A stretch of 64,000 bases of DNA. Origin: Dehalococcoidia bacterium. GTDB lineage: Bacteria > Chloroflexota > Dehalococcoidia > Lucifugimonadales > UBA3495. A model generated the notes under the pieces. It saw only the letters and a program-made list of their open reading frames with translations, ran no database searches and was not told where the DNA came from. Positions 392-13,288 of this stretch are shown here, one piece after another (the first letter of the stretch is position 1; every line of letters begins with the position of its first letter). A program made the position numbers and the translations under genes. Location of the stretch: the NCBI GenBank assembly GCA_965197545.1, contig CBDANJ010000008.1, positions 1,317,035-1,381,034 on the forward strand, written 5' to 3'.

Positions 392-1240
392 ATGTCCAAC
401 GAGAACGGCAACGGCAACCAGCGCAACGGGCACGGCAACAACAACGGCCACCAGAACGGCAATGGCAACCACTACATCCCCTCCAACGGCGTCTCCAAGA
501 ACGGGAGCAACCACAACGGCAACGGGCACCACGCCGACGACTCCATCCCTACCCACGACCTCTTGTGGGACTCCCTGCCCGCCAGCGTCAGCGAGAAGCT
601 GGCCCAGCCCCTGGACGCCAGCCTGGTCTCCCAGCGCAAGGGCCGGGGCAACCGGAGCTTCAGCTACGTCGAGGGCCGCACCGTCATCGACCAGGCCAAC
701 CGGATATTCGGATTCGGCGGCTGGGGCCACGAGGTGATGGGCGACGTGACCCTCCGGGACCTGGACCAGGTGAACACGCAGACCGGCGAGGTCAAGCGCA
801 TCCGGGCCTACTCCGCCACGGTGAAGGTCACCGTCCCCGGCGCGCCGCCCCGCACCGACGTCGGATTCCAGCCGGTATCCGACGAGACCGCCGAGGGGCA
901 TGAGACGGCGTTCAAGGGCGCGGTCACCGACGCTCTCAAGCGGGCGCTCAGGACCTTCGGCGCCCAGTTCGGCAACGCGCTCTACGGCGACGTAGCAGGC
1001 CAGCCCGGCGGCGGCGCCGGCGACACGCTGGCCCCGGCCCTGCGCAAGACCCTCCTGGACCTGGGGGTCAGCCAGGGCTTCGACGAGGAGCGGGTGCGGC
1101 AGGCGGTGCGGGGCCAGACCGGCAGGGATCTGGACGAACTGCCCGCCTCGGAACTGACGCCCCTGGTGGAGCGGGCCGCCCGCAAGGTGCAGCAGCGGCA
1201 GGACGCGGAGGCGGGTCAGAACAGCGGCGCCGAGCAGTAG
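392..1240 (+). CDS. Rad52/Rad22-type single-strand annealing protein
   Basis: AAGGAG 379-384 then ATG 392; Asn/Gly-rich N-tail, then core ...RKGRGNRSFSYVEGRTVIDQANRIFGFGGWG...AFKGAVTDALKRALRTFG... recognised as Rad52-family. Confidence 0.8.
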   Translation: MSNENGNGNQRNGHGNNNGHQNGNGNHYIPSNGVSKNGSNHNGNGHHADDSIPTHDLLWDSLPASVSEKLAQPLDASLVSQRKGRGNRSFSYVEGRTVIDQANRIFGFGGWGHEVMGDVTLRDLDQVNTQTGEVKRIRAYSATVKVTVPGAPPRTDVGFQPVSDETAEGHETAFKGAVTDALKRALRTFGAQFGNALYGDVAGQPGGGAGDTLAPALRKTLLDLGVSQGFDEERVRQAVRGQTGRDLDELPASELTPLVERAARKVQQRQDAEAGQNSGAEQ

Positions 1241-1272
1241 ACCTTCCGGCTAACTGGCAACCACCCAGGCAA

Positions 1273-1305
1273 CGGGGCCGTTCCCTGACAACCGGGGCGG
1301 CCCCG
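1273..1305 (+). terminator. GC hairpin (CGGGGCCG..CGGCCCCG) after Rad52 gene; member of a repeated hairpin family
   Basis: 8-bp perfect stem 1273-1280/1298-1305, 30 nt downstream of stop; near-identical copy at 3850-3882. Confidence 0.5.
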
Positions 1306-1346
1306 CTTCTCATCTACCGGACCAAACAACACAAGGAGGAAACGGC

Positions 1347-1667
1347 ATGACCGGAACCAGAATGCACACGCCCTGGGGCTATCCTCAGGACATCGAGGAA
1401 CTGGCCGAAGGGGTCTGGCGGGTCTCCACCGCCAGCCACGGCGGGTTGAAGCTCAGCCGGGAGCGGTGGGAGGAACTCCCCGACCTGGTCAGGGACTCCT
1501 TCCTTACCCCGGCCTACGCGGAAGGGGACTGCGAGGAACCCATCGCCAGGACCCTGCTGGGTATCGGCGACGAAAGGGATAGGGGGTTCGCCCTGAAGGT
1601 GGCGGGCTGTTTCGACCGCTACGCCCCGGCGCTGCCCTACCTGCGAGACCAGAGGGGACAGCCATGA
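1347..1667 (+). CDS. hypothetical protein
   Basis: AAGGAGG 1334-1340 before ATG 1347; ATGA overlap with next gene; no family recognised. Confidence 0.55.
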   Translation: MTGTRMHTPWGYPQDIEELAEGVWRVSTASHGGLKLSRERWEELPDLVRDSFLTPAYAEGDCEEPIARTLLGIGDERDRGFALKVAGCFDRYAPALPYLRDQRGQP

Positions 1668-2059
1668 CCGCCACCAGGAGCAGGCCGCGCAGCCTGCCCA
1701 GCGTGACGACCAAGCTGGCGACGGAACTGGGCAACCTCTACGTCACCGTCTGCCTGGACGAGGACGGAAACCCCTTTGAGGTCTTCGGCTCCCTGGGCAA
1801 GGCCGGCAGCCTCCAGCACGGGGTCACCGAGTTGGCCTGCCGGCTGGTGTCCCTGCACTTGCGGCGCGGCACGCCGCTGGACGAAATCGTTGACCAACGC
1901 CAGGGCATTTCGGAGATGCAGCCCTGGCCCAACGTGATGGAGGACGGCAGCACGGTGTACGTGCGCGGCCTCGGCGACGGCATCGCCCTGATCCTGCGGG
2001 GCCACCTGGCGGCCCAAGCTGAAGTGGGAATGGAGGAACTCAGGCTGGCTGCCGACTGA
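1664..2059 (+). CDS. TSCPD-domain protein (ribonucleotide-reductase C-terminal-like domain)
   Basis: ...GNPFEVFGSLGKAGSLQHGVTELACRLVSLHLRRGTPLDEIVDQRQGI... resembles the TSCPD domain; translationally coupled to upstream ORF. Confidence 0.55.
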   Translation: MTATRSRPRSLPSVTTKLATELGNLYVTVCLDEDGNPFEVFGSLGKAGSLQHGVTELACRLVSLHLRRGTPLDEIVDQRQGISEMQPWPNVMEDGSTVYVRGLGDGIALILRGHLAAQAEVGMEELRLAAD

Positions 2060-2092
2060 AAGAACTGCGCTGACCAGACCTGCCAAGGCACA

Positions 2093-2122
2093 CGGGGCCG
2101 TCTCCTACGGGGAGCGGCCCCG
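2093..2122 (+). terminator. GC hairpin of the same CGGGGCCG/CGGCCCCG family
   Basis: Stem 2093-2100/2115-2122 directly after the TSCPD gene stop. Confidence 0.5.
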
Positions 2123-2164
2123 CTCAAATTTCCCCGACACAGCAATTACGGAGGAAAGACAACC

Positions 2165-3223
2165 ATGACGACGACCATTGACAGCAAGACGGACGTCTAC
2201 TCGCGGCCCAACGCCCGCTTCGGCGACGACGGGACCCTGGAGATCCGGGCCTCGGCGGTGGGCAACTGCCGCCGCGCCCTCTGGTACGAGGCCAACGAGT
2301 ACCCGGTCACCAACGCGCGTACCGAGGAGTCCCTGACCGTCCTGGAGGCGGGCAACGCCCTGGAGCCGGTGGTGCTCAAGGCCATGCGGCGGGCCGGTTG
2401 GGACATCACCCCTACCGACCGGGACAACCCTGAAATGATGTCCCTGCGCCTCGGCCCCGCCCTGGTGGTCACGGGCCACGTGGACGCCACCGGAATCGTC
2501 CCCATCTTCGGTGACGAACCCAGCGTCATCGAGATCAAGACCCGGGGGCCGGAAGCCTACAAGCGGTGGTGGAAGTTGGGGGCGGAGCGCAGCCACCCGG
2601 AGTCGGTGGCCCAGGCCGCCTTCTACTCCTACGGGACCTTCGGGGAGGCGCGGGACGTGGTGATCGCCACGATGGACACCGGCAGTCGCCAGTGGGACTT
2701 CGAGGTGATTCCGGCGGAGCGGGTCGCCACAGCTTTCCACCGGGCCTGCGAGCGGCTGGGTGCCATCGGCGCCCACCACCTGCTGCACGGGCGGGACTCT
2801 CAGGCCCTGCCGGAGCGGGACTTCACCGCCGACGACTGGCAGTGCCAGCGCTGCCCCTTCCTGAACACCTGCCTGCCGGGGTCAGCGGCGCCTGAACCCG
2901 AACCCGATGGAGGGGAAGAGAACGCCGAGCCGGTGAACGACGAAGAGGCGCAGGCGGCGCTCCGGGAGTACGAGAACGCCCAGGAGATGCTGAAGGCGAT
3001 TGAAGAGGACAAGCAGTGGGCCTTGGGGATGCTGCGGACCTGGCTCAAGCAGCAGGGCAAGGACAAGGCCCGGTTGGAGGGGAGGGAGAAGACCCGAACC
3101 GTGGGGATGGTGAAGTCCACCCGCTACAACGTCGATCACAAGAGGCTGAACGCCCTGCTGGAGCCGGAGACCAGGGCGGGCATCGTCACCGAGAACGTCT
3201 CCGAGTACCTGCGGGTCAGCTAG
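2165..3223 (+). CDS. PD-(D/E)XK nuclease, Cas4-like (four-Cys cluster)
   Basis: GHVDATG ... VIEIKTRG (D...ExK) plus Cys in GNCRRALWYE and C-terminal CQRCPFLNTC (CxxCx5C) as in Cas4/RecB-type phage exonucleases. Confidence 0.7.
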   Translation: MTTTIDSKTDVYSRPNARFGDDGTLEIRASAVGNCRRALWYEANEYPVTNARTEESLTVLEAGNALEPVVLKAMRRAGWDITPTDRDNPEMMSLRLGPALVVTGHVDATGIVPIFGDEPSVIEIKTRGPEAYKRWWKLGAERSHPESVAQAAFYSYGTFGEARDVVIATMDTGSRQWDFEVIPAERVATAFHRACERLGAIGAHHLLHGRDSQALPERDFTADDWQCQRCPFLNTCLPGSAAPEPEPDGGEENAEPVNDEEAQAALREYENAQEMLKAIEEDKQWALGMLRTWLKQQGKDKARLEGREKTRTVGMVKSTRYNVDHKRLNALLEPETRAGIVTENVSEYLRVS

Positions 3224-3255
3224 ACGCACCTTGACGCACCGAAGCGGAGCGCCAA

Positions 3256-3291
3256 CGGGGCCGCTCGTTCCCACGGAGATTGTCGGCCCCG
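3256..3291 (+). terminator. GC hairpin of the CGGGGCCG/CGGCCCCG family
   Basis: Stem 3256-3263/3284-3291 after the nuclease gene stop (3223). Confidence 0.45.
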
Positions 3292-3343
3292 CAATCCATA
3301 TGGGCAACCATCAATCACAACCTAACGTAACGGAGGAACCATC

Positions 3344-3808
3344 ATGGCGAAGAGCATCAACAAGGTAGAACTCCTGGGCCGGGTCGGAAGCGACCCGGAG
3401 ATGAAGTACACGGCGTCGGGCATCGCCGTCACCCAGCTGCGCCTGGCCACCGACCGGGTGCGCAAGGGCGGCGAGTCCGAGACCGACTGGCACCAGATCG
3501 TGGTGTGGGACAAGCTGGCTGAAGCTGTCGCGCAGTACGTGGAAAAGGGGCAGAGGCTGTACGTCTCGGGCCGCCTGGCGCAGAACTCCTGGACCGGCGA
3601 CGACGGGCAGCGGCGCTACCGAACCGAGATTCACGCCCAGGAGGTGGTGTTCCTGGACTCCGCCCGCAACGGCGGCGGCAACCACACGGGCAACGGCTCT
3701 GCCAACGGGGTCAACGCCGCCGCCAACCACCAGGCCAACGCCGGAAACGCCAACGGATTCAACGCTGGCGGTGGTTACCAGCCCGGCGACGAGGACTCTC
3801 CCTTCTAA
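3344..3808 (+). CDS. ssb: single-stranded DNA-binding protein
   Basis: MAKSINKVELLGRVGSDPEMKYT...WHQIVVWDKLAE...RYRTEIHAQEVVFLD, Gly/Asn-rich linker, acidic tail DEDSPF. Confidence 0.9.
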   Translation: MAKSINKVELLGRVGSDPEMKYTASGIAVTQLRLATDRVRKGGESETDWHQIVVWDKLAEAVAQYVEKGQRLYVSGRLAQNSWTGDDGQRRYRTEIHAQEVVFLDSARNGGGNHTGNGSANGVNAAANHQANAGNANGFNAGGGYQPGDEDSPF

Positions 3809-3849
3809 CTGGACATCCGCACACCGGCGCCTTCCCCAAGGCGCAACCA

Positions 3850-3882
3850 CGGGGCCGTTCCCTCACAGCAGGGGCGGCCCCG
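3850..3882 (+). terminator. GC hairpin, near-identical to 1273-1305
   Basis: ACGGGGCCGTTCCCTCACAGCAGGGGCGGCCCCGCT vs ACGGGGCCGTTCCCTGACAACCGGGGCGGCCCCGCT. Confidence 0.5.
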
Positions 3883-3917
3883 CTCCCGTTTCCAGACTAA
3901 TCGCCAAGGAGTGAACC

Positions 3918-4478
3918 ATGCCCAGGAAGAAGCAAGCCAAGCAAGAGGAAATGCTCCTGTCCATCCCCGAACCCGCCGCTCCCGCCACGCCGGAGGGCCA
4001 CGCCGTGCTGGAGGCCCTGCGCTCCAACCTGGCCCTGCTGGGGGAACTGGCGGCCCGCTACGAGGTCGCCTTCCAGCCGGAACGCCCCGCCGAGATGCCC
4101 ACCATCAACTGCCCGCAGGACGTTCACAACCTGCTGGGGCCGGAGATGTCCGCCCTGGCCCAGGAGCAGCTGCGGGTGCTGCTGCTCAACACCCGCAACC
4201 AGGTGCGGGGGCAGCGGGTGGTCTACATGGGCAACGTCAACTCGTCGGTGATTCGCCCCGCCGAGGTGCTGCGCGCTGCGGTCATCGAGTCCGCCCCCAG
4301 CATCATCATTTCCCACAATCACCCGTCCGGCGACCCAACCCCCAGCCCCGAGGACGTGTCCATCACCCGCGAGTTGGTGCAGGCGGGGAAGCTCCTCGGC
4401 ATCGACCTCCTGGACCACGTGGTCATCGGCGGCGACCGCTGGGTCAGCCTCAAGGAACGGAAGCTGATGGACGTTTAG
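3918..4478 (+). CDS. radC: RadC-like JAB/MPN domain protein
   Basis: JAMM motif ...IIISHNHPSGDPTPSPEDVSITRELVQAGKLLGIDLLDHVVIG. Confidence 0.85.
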   Translation: MPRKKQAKQEEMLLSIPEPAAPATPEGHAVLEALRSNLALLGELAARYEVAFQPERPAEMPTINCPQDVHNLLGPEMSALAQEQLRVLLLNTRNQVRGQRVVYMGNVNSSVIRPAEVLRAAVIESAPSIIISHNHPSGDPTPSPEDVSITRELVQAGKLLGIDLLDHVVIGGDRWVSLKERKLMDV

Positions 4479-4575
4479 CTCCATGACACCGAGACCGGCG
4501 GCGGCGCGCCGGTCCTCACGCGGGGGGTTCCCTTCCCCGCGCCCTTCCCGAATCCACACCTACAGGAGGCACTCC

Positions 4576-5256
4576 ATGATTCCCACGGAACCCGTCCAGA
4601 GCGGCGAGGACCCCGCATCGAGTGCGGGGCAGGCTCTCTACACGATAAGCGCCGGAGGCTACTCGGCCACCGCCGACGCCTTCGCCCGAGACCCCGACAC
4701 CGGCGGCCTCTGGTTCCTGTCGATGGTGGGGCCGCAGACCGCCCTCAAGGCCATCTGGGCCTCCCTGCTCAAGCAGCCGCCCGACACCGCCCACCTGATC
4801 AAGGGCGTGGAGGGCATGGCCCTCTCCGGCGGATACCAGCAGTGCCAGGTCCCGTATCACACCGTCGGCACCTGGACCACCCGCATCGTGCGGCTGCCCG
4901 TAAGCCGGGGCTGGCACGCCCTCGTTTACACCCGGCTGGCGGAGTTCAGCTTCGAGCGGGACGACTTCCTGCTGCTGGCCCAAGACCAGGCCGACGCGCC
5001 GGGGCTGCACCACCGCTTCCTGGACCGGCGCGGCCCCCTGCCCCTGCACCGCTCCTGGCGGGACTGGCTCTGGCGAAGGGGGTTGGACACCGGGGAGACC
5101 GTCCCCCTGGAGTCCGCCGGGCTCCTGGCCTACACCTGCAACCCCAGGGGCGAGGAACTGAAGGCCGACCTGTCGGCGGCGGTGGCGGCGGGGACGCTGA
5201 CCCTCAATGAACCGGAACCCGAAACCGATGAAACGGAGGAAGACAACGATGGATAG
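4576..5256 (+). CDS. hypothetical protein (carries a 24-nt micro-insertion at 4612-4635)
   Basis: AGGAGG 4564-4569 then ATG 4576; no family recognised. Confidence 0.5.
   Translation: MIPTEPVQSGEDPASSAGQALYTISAGGYSATADAFARDPDTGGLWFLSMVGPQTALKAIWASLLKQPPDTAHLIKGVEGMALSGGYQQCQVPYHTVGTWTTRIVRLPVSRGWHALVYTRLAEFSFERDDFLLLAQDQADAPGLHHRFLDRRGPLPLHRSWRDWLWRRGLDTGETVPLESAGLLAYTCNPRGEELKADLSAAVAAGTLTLNEPEPETDETEEDNDG
4612..4635 (-). repeat. AGCCTGCCC-hairpin micro-insertion, copy 5 (24 nt, in frame)
   Basis: Minus strand reads AG|AGCCTGCCCCGCACTCGATGCGGG|GTC; stem CCCCGCA/TGCGGGG. Confidence 0.7.
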
Positions 5257-5656
5257 GACTCTGAACCCGGTGAAGCGGGGCAACAAGCGCCGCCGCTCCC
5301 GCAACTGGAAGGCCTGGCAGCTCTTCTCCCCGGACGGTGACACCTGCCGTTTCTGCCCCCACGGGGCTTCCGACCACCTGACGTCAAGCGGTCAGCCCCA
5401 TTTCTACCGGCCCGCCGCCGAGCAGGACTGGCGGAACTCCAACGAGAAGCTCTACCGCCACGAACTGGCCGACGGCTCCGAGGTGCTGGTCAAGCGCATC
5501 ACCGTCGCCAGCCGCGCCGAGCTGCTGACGGCCTTCTGCACCGCCTGCGCCAAGGACAAGCAGACCGGCCAGGTTCTCTGCTTCCAGCGCACGCTGGCCA
5601 AGGGCGAGGTGGTGGGCCTGACGAACCTGAACGGAAACCACAACGACGGGAGGTAG
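5249..5656 (+). CDS. hypothetical Cys-containing protein
   Basis: GGAGGA before ATG 5249; CRFCPHG and CTACAKD pairs suggest metal binding; start uncertain (ORF opens at 5207). Confidence 0.4.
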   Translation: MDRTLNPVKRGNKRRRSRNWKAWQLFSPDGDTCRFCPHGASDHLTSSGQPHFYRPAAEQDWRNSNEKLYRHELADGSEVLVKRITVASRAELLTAFCTACAKDKQTGQVLCFQRTLAKGEVVGLTNLNGNHNDGR

Positions 5657-5660
5657 CACG

Positions 5661-5930
5661 ATGGCGGACAAGCAGACCCTGTACTTTCCCTGCCCCGGCT
5701 GCGGGGCGCGGTTTGCCCGGGTGGAGGAGACCGGCGAGGACATCCACGCCGGGGAGACCTACACCTGCAACGAGTGCGGCGCGGCGGTGGTGCTCGTCGC
5801 CCTGAGCATGGAGATGCTGGCCGATCCCGCATCCATCCGCTGGAACTGCCACTTCTGCCAGCCCGGCCCCTGCCGGTTGGCCCCGTCCAGCGGCGCCTCC
5901 GGCGACTCCGACAACACCGATTCCAAGTAA
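5661..5930 (+). CDS. hypothetical zinc-ribbon protein
   Basis: CPGCG...CNECG spaced as a zinc ribbon; 4 nt after the upstream stop. Confidence 0.4.
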   Translation: MADKQTLYFPCPGCGARFARVEETGEDIHAGETYTCNECGAAVVLVALSMEMLADPASIRWNCHFCQPGPCRLAPSSGASGDSDNTDSK

Positions 5931-5959
5931 CCCTTTCCACACAACAAAGGAGGACAGAT

Positions 5960-6993
5960 ATGAGACTCGCTGCCCAAGCCAAGGGAGGCTTCTATCCCAC
6001 GCCGCCCCGGGTGGTTGACCTGGCTGCCCAACTGCTCTACGGGGCCAGGGGCCGCTCCCGCAGCGCGGACACCCTGCGCATCCTGGACCCCTGCTGCGGG
6101 GCCGGGGATGCCCTGGCCCAGTTCGCCGGCCTGCTGCGCGACCGCGGCACCGTACCCGTGGAGACCTGCGGGGTAGAGCTGCATAGGGACCGGGCGGAGC
6201 AGGCGGCCCACGTCCTGGACCGCGCCCTGGCCTGCGACCTCTTCGCCACGTCGATAGCCAACAACGCCTTCGGCGTGCTTCTCTTGAACCCCCCTATGAC
6301 TTCGATGCCGAAGACAAGCGCACCGAACACGCCTTCCTCACGCACACCACGCGCTACCTGACCGACGGCGGGCTGCTGCTGTTCATAGTCCCCAAGCAAA
6401 GGCTCTCCGTTTCCGCCCGCTACCTCTCCTCCCACTACCGGGACATCCGGTGCTGGGCGTTCCCCAGCCCGGAACGGGAGGTCTTCGACCAGGTGGTGCT
6501 GGTGGGCCGGCGCAAGGCGGAACCCAGCCCCGACCCCTACGCCGAGGAGCAGGTGCGGGACTGGGCCGAGGGGGAGCCGGAGGAGTTCTCGCCCCGCCCC
6601 TACCCGGTCTACGACCCTCCGGTGGTTGCCGCCGGGGACATCCTCTTCGCCACCCGCACCGTTGACCCCCTGGCGGCGGTGACCGAGGCTCGGAAGACCG
6701 GCCTGTGGGCCAGCCAGGAGGTCAGGGACTCCCTCTGGCCCGCCCAGGACCAGCGCACCCGCCCGTTGATGCCGCTCCGCCGGGGCCACATGGCCATGCT
6801 GGTGGCGGCGGGTTTCCTCGACAACCTGGTGCTGGAGGCCGAGGGAAGGCGCATCCTGGTCAAGGGGCGCACCACCAAGGAGCTGGTGCTGGCCGAGGAG
6901 ACGGAGAACACCGAGGTCTACCGGGAACGGCTCAAGACCACCGTCGTGGCCCTGGACCTGGACGACGGGGAGATCACCGACATCGCCGCCTGA
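5960..6993 (+). pseudogene. SAM-dependent N6-adenine DNA methyltransferase, frame broken in a C6 run
   Basis: AGGAGG then ATG 5960; motif I ILDPCCGAGDAL; LLLNPP then frame slips at CCCCCC 6289-6294; the next frame continues YDFDAEDKRTEHAFL... to 6993 (restores NPPY). Confidence 0.7.
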
Positions 6994-7044
6994 CCCCGCC
7001 CAACGACAACTACTCTGACGGCTGCAACGCCAGCCGCGACACGA

Positions 7045-7080
7045 AGGCCCCGCTTGTTCCACCAGGGACGGGCGGGGCCT
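7045..7080 (+). terminator. intrinsic-terminator-like hairpin
   Basis: AGGCCCCGC/GCGGGGCCT stem followed by CGCTTTTCC. Confidence 0.55.
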
Positions 7081-7121
7081 CGCTTTTCCGAAAGGCAACA
7101 CTCAAGGCAAGGAGATTACCC

Positions 7122-7347
7122 ATGAACCTGTCAGGATTCATCGACCAGTTCAAGGAGGCCATCGCCAGGCGGGTGGTGGAGTCCTACCCGCCCCTCTACC
7201 GGCCTTCGGAGAACGGCCAGAAGCTGCCCCGGCTGCTGCGCACCCCGATGGGCGGCCAGGAGGACGCCATCAAGGGCACAGCCCTGTCCCTCCAGGCCCA
7301 CCGGGGCACCACGGTGGTGGGCGAGATGGGCACGGGCAAGACCTTCA
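7122..7347 (+). CDS. DEVH-box (SF2) helicase, exon 1, ending inside the Walker A region
   Basis: GGAG then ATG 7122; ...TTVVGEMGTGKTF then GTGCG intron 5' end at 7348. Confidence 0.8.
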
Positions 7348-8525
7348 GTGCGCCGCGTCACGCGGCATAGGATACCCGGCTCAGTCGGGAAGAACCCGGA
7401 GAAAGTTCTTGGGCCAACCGACCCACCTCGAAGCAAAAGCTTAGGGGGACAACAGCATGTCGGTAAAGCGGCTACAGTCCCAAAGCGTTGTAGGACTGGT
7501 TCCGCAAGGCCCGCGCGATACGGTGAAAGCTTGATTGCCTGAACCCCAGTTTCCAATTGGTGTTCTTGCCACCCGCCGGTAGAACGCTTGTAACCCGGCG
7601 CCGCTCATTGCACTGGTCTGATGAAGGAACAATGCAACTCCGATGAGCGGACGATGACCAGTGTGGTCATTCAAGGGAACGAACGGGGCACCTACAGTCG
7701 CGCTAGAACGTCCTATGTCAATGGAACGCGGGATGGCCTACGGGGGGAGACCCCTATGGTCACGGAGCCCTCGTAGTAGTCCGAGGACGGGAAAGCCGTC
7801 CACATGGCGAAGGAGGGCAGGTGTCAACGACGAACAAACACAGAGAGGTATGCACAATGCAAGACGCCGAAACTGTATTGAACGTCATACGCGAACGCGG
7901 AGAACGAGGATTGCCGCTGGAGAACATCTATCGGCTGCTTTACAACCGGAACTTGTACCTGCGGGCCTACGGTCGCATCTACTCAAACCAGGGAGCTACG
8001 ACCAAGGGCGTCACCGCAGAGACCGTGGACGGTATGTCACTGGCGAAAATCGACCGCATCATCGAAGCCTTGCGCTACGAGCGGTTCAGGTGGACGCCGG
8101 TGCGACGGGTCAACATTCCCAAGCCTAACGGCAAGACCCGCGCCTTGGGCATACCGACGTGGACGGACAAGCTGCTGCAAGAGGTCATCCGGATGATTCT
8201 GGAAGCCTACTACGAGCCGCAGTTTTCCGACCGCTCCCACGGCTTTCGGCCCAACCGGGGGTGCCACACCGCCTTGAGCAACGTGACCACCCACTGGACT
8301 GGTGTCCGCTGGTTCGTCGAGGGCGACATCAAAGGGTGCTTTGACAACATCGACCACGATGTCCTGTTGTCGGTGCTCGGCGAGAAGCTCCACGACAACC
8401 GATTCCTACGCCTGCTCAAGTACCTACTAAAGGCAGGCTACGTTGAGGATTGGAAGTATGGCGGCACGCTGAGCGGTACACCGCAAGGCGGAATAGTCAG
8501 TCCCATCCTCGCCAACATCTACCTA

Positions 8526-9750
8526 AACCAAAGCCAAGGTGAAACGTGCAGGAGCGTCCGGTAGAATCGGGGGAGTCGCAGGTGCGACGCGGGAAGCAGG
8601 AGTGGGATGGTGCTGGGCATGGGAGAGATCGACCGGTTCCTGGAACAGTGGGAAATGGACGCGCCGGGTGTGCACCAGCGGCTGATTCTGGCGCCGACAC
8701 CCCGGGAGCGATGGCACGCCATCTGGCTCCTGTCCCAGGGCTGGAGTGCCGCGGACACTGCCGTGGCCCTGCGTAGGGATTCTCATACCATAGGGAAGTG
8801 GCTTGCCGCCTTCGGCCAGGGCGGCCCGGCGGCTTTGATTTTCGAGCAGTCCGGAGGGTCCCCCCGCCCTTGGCCAGGCGCAGCGGGAGGAGTTGAAGGC
8901 GGCGGTGCAGGAACCTCCTGGCGCATCGGGCATTGGCTTGGCCAACTGGAACTGGAGGGCGGTGTGTCAGTTTGTCCTGGAGTGCTTCGGCGTCAGCTTG
9001 AGCCGCAGCAGTTGCCTGAACTACCTGCACCGCTTGGGATTCGCCTTCAAGCGGCCCAAGAAACGCCTGCTCAAGGCTGATGTGGAAAGGCGGGAGGCCT
9101 TTGTGGCAGAGTACGCTTCCTTGGTGGAGGAGGCGCAGGAGAACGGGGAGAAGATATTCTTCGCCGACGAGGCCCACTTCCGGGCGGACGCCGAGTTGCG
9201 GGGCAAGTGGGTGCTGAGGGGAGAGCCGGCCTTGGTAGACTCGACCAGCCCGAGGTACGGCGAGAAGGCTAGCTACTATTCGGCGGTGTGCTTGGAGACG
9301 GGGAAAGTGGAGTGGATGGAGTTGGAGGGAAACAGCAACAGCGAAACGTCGGCAGCCTTCCTGGAGCAATTGCGGGAGAAGCACGGAGGTCGGCTGAACG
9401 TGATCTGGGACAACGCGCCAGCGCATCGCGGCGAGGCGGTGAGGGAACTCCTGAAAAGGCCCGGACTGAACCTGCGGCTGGTGAATCTGCCGGGGTACAG
9501 TCCGGACTTCAATGCCGATGAGGCCATCTGGGGCTGGGCGAGAGAGGAGGCGACCGGCAACCTGTGCCTGGGAAGCAAGGGGCTGGTGCAGGAGAGAGTC
9601 GGCAGCTTCCTCGCCGGGCTGGTCAGCCGGAAGGACGAGGTGAAACGCCGTTGCCGAACCGTCCTGCAATCACGGACCGCAGGATTACTGCGCTCCACCC
9701 AGCCTGATTCCCAACATCCAGCAAATGCACATCCCACCTTGGCTTTAGTT
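8526..9750 (+). mobile_element. IS630-family insertion sequence with TA target duplication
   Basis: Inverted repeats AACCAAAGCCAAGGTG (8526-8541) and CACCTTGGCTTTAGTT (9735-9750) flanked by TA (8524-8525, 9751-9752). Confidence 0.8.
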
Positions 9751-9753
9751 TAG
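8607..9753 (+). pseudogene. IS630-family DDE transposase in two frames (shift at C6 run 8860-8865)
   Basis: HTH part ...WLLSQGWSAADTAVALRRDSHTIGKWL..., then ...IFFADEAHF...VIWDNAPAHRG...LPGYSPDFNADEAIW...; frames join at ...SGGSPP/ALGQAQREEL. Programmed frameshift versus indel not resolvable. Confidence 0.7.
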
Positions 9754-9792
9754 ACCGGTTGGACAAGGCTTTAGTTTAGACCGGTTGGACAA
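9741..9792 (+). repeat. 26-bp perfect tandem duplication spanning the IS630 right end/target junction
   Basis: GGCTTTAGTTTAGACCGGTTGGACAA x2 (9741-9766, 9767-9792). Confidence 0.9.
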
Positions 9793-10995
9793 GTTTGTCG
9801 AGAACGTGCTGATACCAGCCCACACCCGTGGCTCAGACCGGAGAGACAACCGCGAGTACACACGTTTGCTGAACCAAGCGGCCCGCCAGAGGAAGCGGGG
9901 GAACCACGCCAAGGCACTGCAACTGCGCAAGCAAATGCAACAACTGCCATCGCGTGACCCCTACGACCCCGGCTACCGCCGGTTACGGTACGTGCGCTAC
10001 GCGGACGACTTCGTGCTGGGTTTCATCGGGCCAAAGGTCGAAGCCCAACAGGTGAAAGAGTCCTTGGAGACGTTCCTGCGCGACTCGCTCAAGCTGGAGC
10101 TATCCAAGGAGAAAACTCTCATAACCCACGCCACCAGCCAGGCGGCGCGGTTCCTCGGCTACGAACTCGTGAACCAACAGGCCAACGACCAGTTTGACCG
10201 CAATGGTCGGCGCAGGGTCAACGGCCAAATCGGATTGCGGGTCCCCGCCGACGTCATCGAACAACACTGCCAAGCCTACATGCGCAAAGGCAAACCGGCA
10301 CACCGCAGTTACCTACTCCACGATGAAGATTACTCCATCGTGGCACAGTACCAGTCGGAGTTCCGGGGCGTCGTCAACTACTACCTTCTGGCCTACAACG
10401 TCTCCCATTTCGGGCGACTGCAATCGGTCATGGAGATGTCTTTGGCACGGACCCTTGCGGCAAAGCACAAGTCCACCGCACGGAAGATGCGACGCCAGTA
10501 CAAGAGCGTCGTGGAAACCGAGCACAGGCCGCGTGTCTGTCTCAAGGTCGTCAAGCAACGGGACAACGGCAAGCCACCTCGCGTGGCATATTTCGGTGGC
10601 ATCCCCCTGAAACGGCAACGGCAGGCCGTCCTAGTAGACCAACAGCCTCAACGGTACAGGAGCGGCCGCAACGAGCTTATCAAACGGCTCGAAGCGGACG
10701 AGTGCGAGGTGTGCCACTCAACGGTGAAAGTAGAAATTCATCACATCCGCGCACTTCGCGACCTGAACGTGAAAGGCCAACGGGAAAAGCCCAAGTGGGT
10801 ACAAATCATGGCGGCGCGAAAACGCAAGACCCTCGCGGTCTGCCGGACGTGTCACATGGACATCCACCACGGGCGCAAGTAATCCGCAATCGCAGCGGTA
10901 GTTAGTGTCCTCGGCTTAGGCAAAAACCAAAGTCGGGCCAGAGCCTTTCCTCCAACAATGTATTGGGCTACGGTATCCGGCAGAGGTGATAAAGC

Positions 10996-11196
10996 ATGAG
11001 CAAAGATATGCAGACCCGTATAGGCATAGGAATCGCGCTCGGAACCGGGGTAGGCGCGGCCATAGGCGTAGCCATCGGCGTGTCACTCGGCGATATCTTC
11101 CTGGCGATCGGCGTGGCAATCGGTGGGGGGACCGGCGCGGTGATAGGAATTGCCGTGGCGGTGGCGCTTGGGCGCAGAAATGGTGACACTTCCTAG
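10996..11196 (+). CDS. small glycine-zipper membrane protein (66 aa) inside intron domain IV
   Basis: GAGGTGA 7 nt before ATG; ...IGIGIALGTGVGAAIGVAIGVSLGDIFLAIGVAIGGGTGAVIGIAVAVALG...; two predicted helices of GxxxG repeats. Coding status unproven. Confidence 0.4.
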   Translation: MSKDMQTRIGIGIALGTGVGAAIGVAIGVSLGDIFLAIGVAIGGGTGAVIGIAVAVALGRRNGDTS

Positions 11197-11223
11197 ACAC
11201 TACCGCTTTGTAAAGACACTGGA

Positions 11224-11257
11224 GAGCCGGATGCGGTGAAAGCCGCACGTCCGGTTC
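11224..11257 (+). ncRNA. group II intron domain V
   Basis: GAGCCGGATGCGGTGAAAGCCGCACGTCCGGTTC, canonical 34-nt DV with GAAA loop and AGC triad. Confidence 0.9.
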
Positions 11258-11320
11258 GGAGGGGGGCCGACGGAAAAGTGCCCTGAGCAATCAGGGTAAC
11301 TCGCCGGCGGCCTACCCTAC

Positions 11321-12860
11321 TCGGCGCCGCCGCCGCCCACGCCGCCGGCTTCCGGCGCATGTTGATCCTCTGCCCGCCTCACCTCACCCGAAAGTGGAAG
11401 CGGGAGGTGGAGGACACGGTGCCCGGCGCCCGGGCTGCCATCGTCGCCTCCATCACCGACCTGGAACGGCTGCGGCTGTCCGTGGGTCCCGCTCCCCTCT
11501 TCGCCATCATGTCCCGGGAGCGGGCCAAGCTGTCCTACCGCTGGCAGCCCGCCGTGATCCAGCGCTGGGCCGCCGCCGGGGGCCGGCTGGTGCGGGACGA
11601 GCAGACCGGCGAACCCTTCCAGGTGCCCTGCTGCCCCCGCTGCTACGCCCAGGTGGTGGACAAGGACGGCGTGCCCCTGACCAACGAGGAGTTGTCCCGC
11701 AAGCGTCGCAACTGCGACCTGTGCAGGTCCGCCCTCTGGCAGGCCGACGGCTCCGGTCCCCGGCGTTATCCCCTTGCCGACTACGTGAAGCACCGGATGA
11801 AGGGCTTCTTCGACCTGCTGATTGGCGACGAGGTCCATGAGTACAAGGGCCGCGGCTCCGCCCAGGGCATCGCCGCCGGGGTCCTGGCCGACTCCTGCGG
11901 CAAGTCCCTCACCCTTACCGGCACCCTCACGGGCGGCTATTCCTCAACCCTGTTCCACCTGCTCTACCGCTTCTCGCCGGAGATTCGGACCGAGTTCGCT
12001 CGCTCCGAGGAGGGCCGCTGGATACAGCGGTACGGCTTCCTGGAGCAGACGGTGCGCCACTCCGACGACGGCGACTCCTTCGAGGACGGGCGCAACAGCC
12101 GCCGCAAGGGATACCGCAAGACGGTCAGGGAAAGGCCCGGCCTGGCTCCCTCGGCCCTCTTCCACCTGATCGGCAACAGCGTGTTCCTGCGCCTCTCCGA
12201 CGTGGCCTCGGGGCTGCCGTCCTACGAGGAGCAGGTGCTGCTGTCGGGCATGGACCGGGAGACGGACTTTACCGGCTTCTCCCAGCGCAAGGCCTACGAC
12301 CTGGTGTTCGACACCCTGCGGCAGGCCCTGGCCGAAGCGTTGGCCAAGGGTTCCAAGCGGCTCCTTGCTACGTACCTGCAAACCCTGCTGGCCTACCCCG
12401 ACGGCTGCACCGGGGGGAGACGGTCTTCGACCCCCAGACCGGAAACATCCTGGTGCAGATGCCGCCCCTGTCCGAGGACAAGCTCTACCCGAAAGAGCAG
12501 GCCCTGGTGGACCTGGTGGCGGCGGAAAGGCTGGCGGGCCGGAAGGTGCTGGTCTACGCCACCCACACGGGAACGCGGGACATCACCGAGCGGATGGAGC
12601 AGTTCCTGACTACGCACGGGTTCAGGGTGGCGGTGCTCAAGGCCGACTCGGTGGCCCCGGACCGCCGGGAGTCCTGGGTGGAGGAACGGGTCAAGCAGGG
12701 GGTGGACGTGGTCATCTGCCATCCCCGCCTGGTGCAGACCGGGCTGGACCTGATCGACTTCCCGACCCTCTGTTGGTTCGAGACGGAGTTCTTCGTCTTT
12801 CAATCAACAGAAAAAAGTACGGTTCTCATGGGCAGTCGATATGGATGCGGTTGGGGTTGA
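11321..12860 (+). pseudogene. DEVH-box helicase, exon 2; frame broken at a G6 run and 3' end replaced
   Basis: Joins exon 1 as ...GTGKTF|IGAAAAHAAGFRRMLILCPPHL...; DEVH at 11827-11838; frame slips at GGGGGG 12412-12417. Helicase-C block ...VLVYATHTGTRDITERM...ICHPRLVQTGLDLIDFPTLCWFETE follows, then composition changes near 12795 and a stop occurs at 12858-12860. Confidence 0.75.
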
Positions 12861-13288
12861 ATAGGTGGCAGCGGGCTGGGGAGAACACCGACCTCCGACC
12901 TTTGTCCGATAGAAAGGCAAGTCTGTCCGCCGCTCTATGGGTTCAAGTCTTCTTAGGTGGGCCTGCACATACCGAATTGCGAACTTTTCGGTGGGAAGTC
13001 CTGATATAAGGAGTCGCCTTGCCTACATCGGCTTAGCCTACACCGACCTCCAGACTACGATGAAGGTGCATAGTCATACCAATGCCGATGGCCGCGCCTA
13101 GCCCCTCCCCAACATTGCGCTTGTCCAGTCTACATTTCGTCTTAGACGCTTAGCTTCTGTGAAAATAATAGATTTCATGCTTGGGCCACGGTTTTTTCGC
13201 TATGTACCTCCCTAACACCCGTCTAACCGCTGATGGTCGGGTCTAAGTGTGCCCGCGGGGTTGTTTGGCTCCTCGCCTATGAGGCTGA

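Follow-up and report, generated by a model that had tools for sequence, protein, structure and literature searches.

An IS630-family element inside a group II intron inside a decayed helicase gene of a Dehalococcoidia conjugative element

That mobile elements land in each other in unselected DNA is a textbook outcome, and the locus described here changes no concept. The closest described systems each resemble a part of it. Ll.LtrB, the group II intron of the relaxase gene ltrB in Lactococcus lactis, encodes LtrA and accepts its intron-encoded protein (IEP) when this is supplied in trans. IS630 of Shigella sonnei belongs to the IS630/Tc1/mariner family, and insertion at CTAG with duplication of the TA is a habit of IS630-family insertion sequences (ISs). 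PMC1874635 places Ll.LtrB in conjugative relaxase genes. RmInt1 of Sinorhizobium meliloti homes into an IS630-family element, ISRm2011-2, and its copies decay by fragmentation (PMC4496777). Nested introns are known as twintrons and from a group IIA1 intron in the open reading frame (ORF) of a group I intron in Chaetomium thermophilum (PMC4801052, PMC7049729). Here we analyse a 64,000-nucleotide stretch of a Dehalococcoidia genome (the window; G000:C8:1317035-1381034), in which an IS630-family element lies within a group II intron that itself lies within a superfamily 2 (SF2) helicase gene. All exon, intron and IS boundaries were located and fixed to the single base, which confirms the nesting order proposed earlier from the letters alone (the sequence-only reading). 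Since the helicase gene is borne by an integrative conjugative element (ICE), the ICE in the chromosome is a fourth level of nesting.

Like Ll.LtrB, the intron is about 2.4 kb in size, encodes an IEP with the order reverse transcriptase (RT), X, D and HNH, shows the same layout of exon-binding sites (EBS) and delta, and lies within a conserved motif of a conjugative-element gene, so that element function depends on splicing. It differs from Ll.LtrB in its host gene, where the target is the Walker A motif of an SF2 helicase (in its sister introns, a type IV secretion system (T4SS) pilin gene), in its host, a Dehalococcoidia ICE, in the destruction of its IEP by an IS and a 26-nt duplication, and in an extra ORF-bearing stem in domain IV. 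In RmInt1 and ISRm2011-2, a group II intron and an IS630-family element are likewise associated in nature, but the nesting is reversed here, with the IS630 having landed in the intron ORF. The IS resembles the IS630 family in its DDE_3 and helix-turn-helix (HTH) transposase, terminal inverted repeats, CTAG target and TA duplication; unlike the IS630 prototype, it has a C run one nucleotide shorter and a split transposase, so that it would depend on three intact copies, and it is followed by the 26-nt junction duplication. Twintrons and similar arrangements share the layered insertion into another element's ORF, but their inner element can splice out, whereas the inner element here, a DNA transposon, cannot be taken out of the transcript. 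Overall, we read the locus, with a probability of about 0.85, as a case of selfish elements piled up in layers within a decaying Dehalococcoidia ICE, in which the intron homed, IS630 hit the intron and the host module decayed.

The outermost gene of the nest can be reassembled across the intron. Helicase exon 1 (7122-7347, plus strand, as are all window features given below) starts with ATG at 7122, comprises 75 codons and one nucleotide, and ends with the Walker A sequence GEMGTGKT-F followed by the first base of an Ile codon. Exon 2 (11321-12787) carries the DEVH box, a Zn-ribbon insert and the start of Helicase_C. In-silico ligation of 7347 to 11321 reads GKTF-I-GAAAAHAAGFRRMLILCPPHL and matches uninterrupted homologues, and the junction GKTF-I-GAAAAH is the same in more than 100 uninterrupted homologues of ~790 aa. 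A protein search with the joined, read-through sequence returned 2,470 relatives, the top matches being uninterrupted proteins of 770-811 aa with identities of up to 99%, and all eight homologues retrieved carry GEMGTGKTFIGAAAAH across the junction. At the DNA level, empty sites in L001 (a syntenic locus), L140 and L141 read GGCAAGACCTTCA|TCGGCGCC. Homologues and empty sites thus agree with the proposal that splicing at 11320|11321 restores the helicase sequence; we also looked for uninterrupted homologues with a different sequence at this junction, and those examined show the same one, giving no ground to reject it.

The intron extends from 7348 to 11320, a total of 3,973 nt of which ~2,405 nt are intron proper; it starts with GTGCG and ends with CCTACCCTAC. 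Its group II assignment holds up against the covariance model of domains V and VI: at 11222-11320, Rfam RF00029 scores 68.1 bits against a gathering threshold of 40 over model positions 1-77, and the end of the match is the proposed 3' splice site. This region contains the catalytic AGC triad, a GAAA loop and a bulged branch-point A at 11314. In domain I, EBS2 (TCTTGCC, 7564-7570) and EBS1 (TGAAGG, 7622-7627), about 217-223 and 275-280 nt into the intron, are complementary at 13/13 positions to the last 13 nt of exon 1 (7335-7347), namely the intron-binding sites (IBS) IBS2 GGCAAGA and IBS1 CCTTCA. In an RNAalifold consensus of five intron copies, the fold of domain I includes 17 compensated pairs, and both EBS1 and EBS2 fall in hairpin loops. 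The delta base A7621, immediately 5' of EBS1 in the same loop (7621-7627), pairs with the +1 base of exon 2, T11321. Such a delta, adjoining EBS1 and paired with exon +1, is known from Ll.LtrB as the IIA arrangement. In addition, the best PDB match of the IEP is LtrA (5g2x; E = 3e-70), compared with 1e-39 or weaker for IEPs of IIC and IIB introns. Judged by this best match and the delta pairing, the intron is classed as LtrA-type, mitochondrial-like or IIA-like. Over the 5' part of the intron, Rfam gave only a sub-threshold D1-D4-1 match (19.7 bits versus 35), from which we draw no class assignment.

We searched the genome for intact copies of the intron, as the sequence-only reading had proposed, and found four (G000:C8:1170844-1173250, 1403340-1405746, 1308888-1311295(-) and 2576037-2578443(-)). 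These sister introns are 2,407-2,408 nt long, align end to end with the window intron, which has no gaps relative to them in its ribozyme parts, and each encodes an intact 596-aa IEP. They are ~85% identical to the window intron and 96-99.7% identical among themselves. All four occupy one identical site, ..VGVGYFI|YGAYMYL.., in T4SS pilin genes (PF18895, 39.6 bits; cut-off 26.6) of four related conjugation modules, and one sister shares its ICE with the window intron, lying in a pilin gene 13 kb upstream of it. Every genomic copy of the pilin-type 13-mer target (4/4) is occupied.

The sisters recognize their target through different bases. Their exon reads GGCTACT-TCATCT^A, with EBS2 GGTAGCC facing IBS2 GGCTACT, EBS1 AGGTGA facing IBS1 TCATCT and a delta T facing +1 A, compared with delta A7621 and +1 T in the window. 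EBS1, EBS2 and delta have thus all changed along with the target, indicating that the EBS/IBS pairing is not a chance match. A smaller change of the same kind is seen at L139, where a wobble variant of the exon, IBS1 CGTTCA, is met by EBS1 TGAATG. Together with the exact complementarity and the hairpin-loop placement, this co-variation bears out the EBS and IBS assignments made earlier from the window.

We next consider how often the helicase site is occupied. The junction pattern GGNAARACNTTYAGTGCGCC was scanned in genome and metagenome contig collections, giving 69 and 63 matches; these counts are about what chance would give, our own estimate being ~69 for the 596-Gb genome collection. By BLAST against the intron, six of the genome loci are genuine (L003, L018, L045, L052, L053 and L055, from four Dehalococcoidia metagenome-assembled genomes (MAGs)), and none of the metagenome pattern loci is. 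When the junction was compared by BLAST with 200 genomes of this family, three further occupied sites (L137-L139) emerged, along with ~80 places, spread over more than 50 genomes, that match only in the exon and represent empty sites. In all, nine other places have the same intron at this helicase site, each of them in a Dehalococcoidia genome; the labels of the MAGs that share the intron and the helicase also point to Dehalococcoidia as the probable taxon of the window. At the occupied sites the intron shares 92-98% identity with the window copy, and the helicase exons share 76-80% in most cases (up to 96% in L138); an intron so much more conserved than its flanks points to homing into divergent alleles. 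The IEPs of L045 and L053 are intact, with 598 and 590 aa and 90% and 95% identity to the window IEP. Nine occupied sites with divergent exons, next to many empty ones, indicate that the helicase Walker A site is a cognate and recurrently used homing site, as had been suggested from the window sequence.

Other sequences related to the intron or its target were noted in the same searches. Three other exact GGCAAGACCTTCA 13-mers in the genome are unoccupied (G000:C7:1662445(-), C7:1614720(-) and C8:1944849(-)); they are Walker A codons of other genes, and one of them has the +1 T. Their vacancy fits a dead IEP, or a need for further protein contacts. L134 was considered as a second homing site, since a decayed helicase there has a related intron (L134:7282-10153) directly at its DEVHE box, and was rejected because the EBS loops of that intron mismatch the exon; the intron may have come there by ectopic insertion, or the contact may be a joint formed by recombination. 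In the plasmid collection we found only ~68% identical relatives, in Rhodococcus and Streptomyces plasmids.

The innermost layer interrupts the intron ORF. The N-terminal part of the IEP (7857-8525; RVT_1, TIGR04416) has 222 aa, covers RT0-RT4 and ends ..SPILANIYL, after which the frame enters the IS for 13 codons and stops at 8562-8564. The C-terminal part (9794-10882, open together with 9753-9767; RVT_1, Intron_maturas2, AI2M-like_HNH) contains the RT5 YADD motif, the X/maturase and D domains and the HNH endonuclease. Between them lies the IS (8526-9750; 1,225 bp), flanked by TA at 8524-8525 and 9751-9752 in a CTAG target that is uninterrupted in the paralogous introns (..ATCTACC TA GACCGG..). 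Its terminal inverted repeats are 28 nt long and imperfect (86% complementary), and its transposase, with DDE_3 (PF13358) and HTH domains, matches NF033545 at 148.6 bits (cut-off 100). Four further copies in the genome are 99.3-99.8% identical to it, and 5/5 copies are flanked by C-TA and TA-G. The family match, the TA on both sides and the intact CTAG of the paralogues establish the insertion as an IS630 element with TA duplication, as first read. The accompanying statement that it cuts the maturase stands in part: the IEP is indeed knocked out after ILANIYL, but the cut falls in the palm region of the RT domain, between RT4 and YADD, and not in the maturase (X) domain.

The IS itself carries a lesion. 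A C6 run (8860-8865) breaks its transposase into two frames (8607-9080 and 8893-9753), and this run is polymorphic among the copies: three of the five have C7 and a single 325-aa ORF, and the other two, including the window copy, have C6. The transposase stop codon of the window copy, TAG at 9751-9753, is formed by the duplicated TA and the G of the CTAG target. Directly at this junction is a perfect tandem duplication of 26 nt (9742-9793; units 9742-9767 and 9768-9793), each unit running from the final 9 nt of the IS through the TA and into the intron ORF for 15 nt. The duplication could be a product of slippage or aberrant repair, and it would leave the intron ORF out of frame even after precise excision of the IS. 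When the two IEP parts are joined in silico, they give a stop-free frame of 590 aa with 85% identity to the paralogues and 90-95% to the L045 and L053 proteins. A frame otherwise open over 590 codons and gap-free ribozyme parts suggest that the IS hit is recent, as does the near identity of the IS to its other copies.

We asked whether the loaded intron could still move. One explanation is that it remains mobile through a sister RT acting in trans, taking the IS along with it; large inserts are tolerated in domain IV, and the intron lineage carries other inserts in the same region. However, the intron-IS junction is present in a single copy in the genome, the IS and the 26-nt duplication occur in 0/9 of the other occupied sites (the duplication is also absent from the four paralogues), and the three GGCAAGACCTTCA 13-mers described above, one with +1 T, remain unoccupied, which together make such mobility extremely improbable. 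An independent nest was seen at L003:5702-6946, where an IS256/Mutator-family transposase gene lies inside the IEP of the same intron, at another position but at the same helicase site.

Splicing, as distinct from mobility, bears on the helicase. In the sequence-only reading, the cut IEP meant that helicase expression hinged on a maturase supplied in trans; were the helicase otherwise intact, the arrangement would be a kind of switch. The ribozyme domains are undamaged, four intact sister IEPs are present in the genome, and LtrA is known to complement ORF-less Ll.LtrB in trans. By analogy with that precedent, we infer that the IS-hit intron now needs a sister maturase to splice, and splicing by such a maturase is possible. 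The claim about expression nevertheless fails, because exon 2 is damaged on its own account. A 1-nt deletion in its CC/G6 tract (12410-12417; at 12412-12417) shifts the frame where homologues read AYPDGCTRGETVFDPQ (PDGCTRGETVF), and helicase homology ends at 12787 (..LCWFET), where homologues go on with DYSVYT.RQASRRSWRIGQ (motif VI) and ~225 more residues. Even without the frameshift, exon 2 would thus stop before motif VI, and a genome-wide search for the missing ~225-aa 3' part found it absent, with only 53-67% identical fragments of other paralogues. Frameshift and truncation together mean that a spliced mRNA would still not encode a working helicase; with the adjoining methyltransferase broken as well, we consider a conditionally expressed, intact helicase very unlikely.

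Domain searches agree with this conclusion. The intact homologue P0001 matches ResIII at 29.5 bits (cut-off 22.5) and Helicase_C at 25.5 bits (cut-off 23.5). The window helicase has motifs I and II and a Helicase_C fragment scoring 19.1 bits versus 23.5, lacks motif VI and falls short of the full family profile; on these grounds it is classed as a pseudogene of the SF2 (ResIII/Helicase_C) family. The end at 12860 given in the sequence-only reading is simply where the read-out frame meets its stop codon, the homology having already ended at 12787; apart from minor corrections of coordinates such as this, all sequence features named there exist.

The truncation point coincides with a defined boundary. 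The left end of a repeat of ~100-180 nt (12788-12884) starts exactly there and opens a low-GC island, the GC content dropping from 0.64-0.68 to 0.51 from 12788. Copies with the same left boundary are found at G000:C8:760538-760634 and G000:C7:94284-94453. Rfam and ARAGORN found no RNA family or tRNA at the boundary, and the repeat is probably the end of a mobile or integrative element. The helicase partner upstream, a DUF6094-type N6 DNA methyltransferase gene (5960-6993; PF19587), is frameshifted at a C6 run (6289-6294) in its NPPY codons: tblastn with the intact 344-aa methyltransferase of L001 gives two frames that split at 6283-6295, with a 1-nt gap relative to L001 at 6294. The literature searched for DUF6094 yielded nothing informative. 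A scan for promoters and terminators gave counts not above shuffled controls.

Several points weigh against the picture of a nest in a decaying host module. One assembly, with an estimated contamination of 9%, is the sole source for the three homopolymer breaks, the duplication of 26 nt and the junction at 12787, and the C6 shared by two of the five IS copies could mark a lineage or come from a systematic error in base calling. As to the part played by a sister maturase, about one in four positions of domain IVa (DIVa) differs between the window intron and the sisters, whose IEPs are 85% identical to the window IEP. The first two points raise the alternative that part of the damage is an artefact of long-read metagenome assembly and that the true locus is only an IS in an intron in a helicase gene. 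All three 1-nt lesions do fall within G/C runs of 6, and an assembly of eight contigs with 9% contamination is typical of long-read MAGs. However, G/C runs of 6 or more show no genome-wide excess of frame switches (the signature is found at 0.6% of such runs versus 0.66% of random positions), 4/4 of the sister 596-aa IEP ORFs are intact, and the truncation point is a defined repeat left end that is seen at two other loci, as in a real insertion or deletion. With homopolymer frame switches at background level and the sister ORFs intact, real decay is likelier than error, and we regard the assembly explanation as unlikely, though it is the least improbable of the alternatives to the layered pile-up.

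Taking the layered pile-up in a decaying ICE as our reading, we infer the following order of events. An LtrA-type intron would first have retrohomed into the sense strand of the SF2 helicase gene of the ICE, recognizing the Walker A codons GGCAAGA-CCTTCA^T through base pairing with EBS2, EBS1 and delta; while intact, it would have spliced by means of its own RT/maturase and given back GKTF-I-GAAAAH. Later, an IS630 element would have moved by cut-and-paste into the CTAG of the intron ORF between the RT4 and YADD motifs, with the 26-nt junction duplication adding a second frame lesion. From then on no RT/maturase would be made, self-splicing would not be efficient and mobility would be lost, while the ribozyme domains look intact. 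Independently, the helicase would have been frameshifted and its 3' third lost to the low-GC island, and its partner methyltransferase frameshifted. Splicing would now proceed only through the maturase of a sister intron, and its product would still be no functional helicase.

The intron also differs from its sisters in carrying an additional ORF. Between the IEP stop and domain V lies an extra, stem-closed domain IV segment of 317 nt (10896-11212) with a 66-aa glycine-zipper ORF (10996-11196) that is preceded by a GAGGTGA ribosome site. The segment is absent from the four pilin-gene paralogues and from L003, where the slot is empty. The same 66-aa ORF is found in intron fragments of L134 (4860-5200), there with a 45-nt in-frame deletion, and L135 (5800-6290), and the same slot holds unrelated ORFs with strong ribosome sites in L045 (L045:7110-7563; 82 aa) and L053 (L053:2387-3139; a 165-aa lipoprotein). 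A second variable site lies in the basal stem of domain I, in the internal loop on its 3' strand, and is empty in the window (7722-7724). Inserts of ~260-780 nt occupy it in L001 (2436-2729), L003 (3808-4168), L055 (minus strand), L134 (8430-8935) and L137 (1954-2210). Those of L001, L055 and L134 contain antisense ORFs of 71, 216 and 141 aa, respectively; the first and the third encode membrane proteins, and the second, which has a GAGGTGG ribosome site, encodes a lipoprotein. The insert of L003 has a shorter antisense ORF homologous to the L134 ORF. Based on these inserts, the domain I internal loop is a possible second, antisense cargo slot. A literature search for cargo or additional ORFs that bacterial group II introns carry in nature returned engineered targetrons only and no description of natural cargo. 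We tentatively raise the idea, which we hold to be rather less than an even bet, that this intron family is a modular platform in Dehalococcoidia ICEs: it would be retargeted through EBS1, EBS2 and delta onto conserved motifs of ICE genes, would have a sense slot and perhaps an antisense slot for extra ORFs, and would allow an IS-hit copy to be spliced in trans by the maturase of a sister 13 kb away.

The surroundings of the nest are those of a conjugative element. Within 22 kb upstream we find genes for a TrwB/TraG-D_C coupling protein, a TraG P-loop/TraC (VirB4-like) ATPase, Replic_Relax and a large serine recombinase with a Zn ribbon, as well as the T4SS_pilin gene with sister intron C, and a primase gene also lies immediately upstream of the window; judged from this gene content, the locus lies in an ICE. 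Window positions 556-7356 are syntenic with L001, in the order Rad52, TSCPD, SSB, RadC, DUF6094 and helicase. At L001:2063-3354, a 5' fragment of the same intron, including the domain I insert, is fused upstream of Rad52 and forms a hybrid ORF of RVT_1 and Rad52, the join corresponding to window position 556.

The locus provides a well-resolved case of nested insertion and, with the event order proposed above, an order of decay in which the host gene and the intron ORF would be dead while the ribozyme remains intact. For annotation, this means that the locus should be treated as a helicase pseudogene and not as an intron-regulated gene. The P-loop motif of an ICE helicase appears as a recurrent homing site, with ~10 occupied and ~80 empty sites among relatives. 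Within one genome, one intron family thus presents a natural pair of target specificities, pilin and helicase Walker A, that is backed by co-variation.

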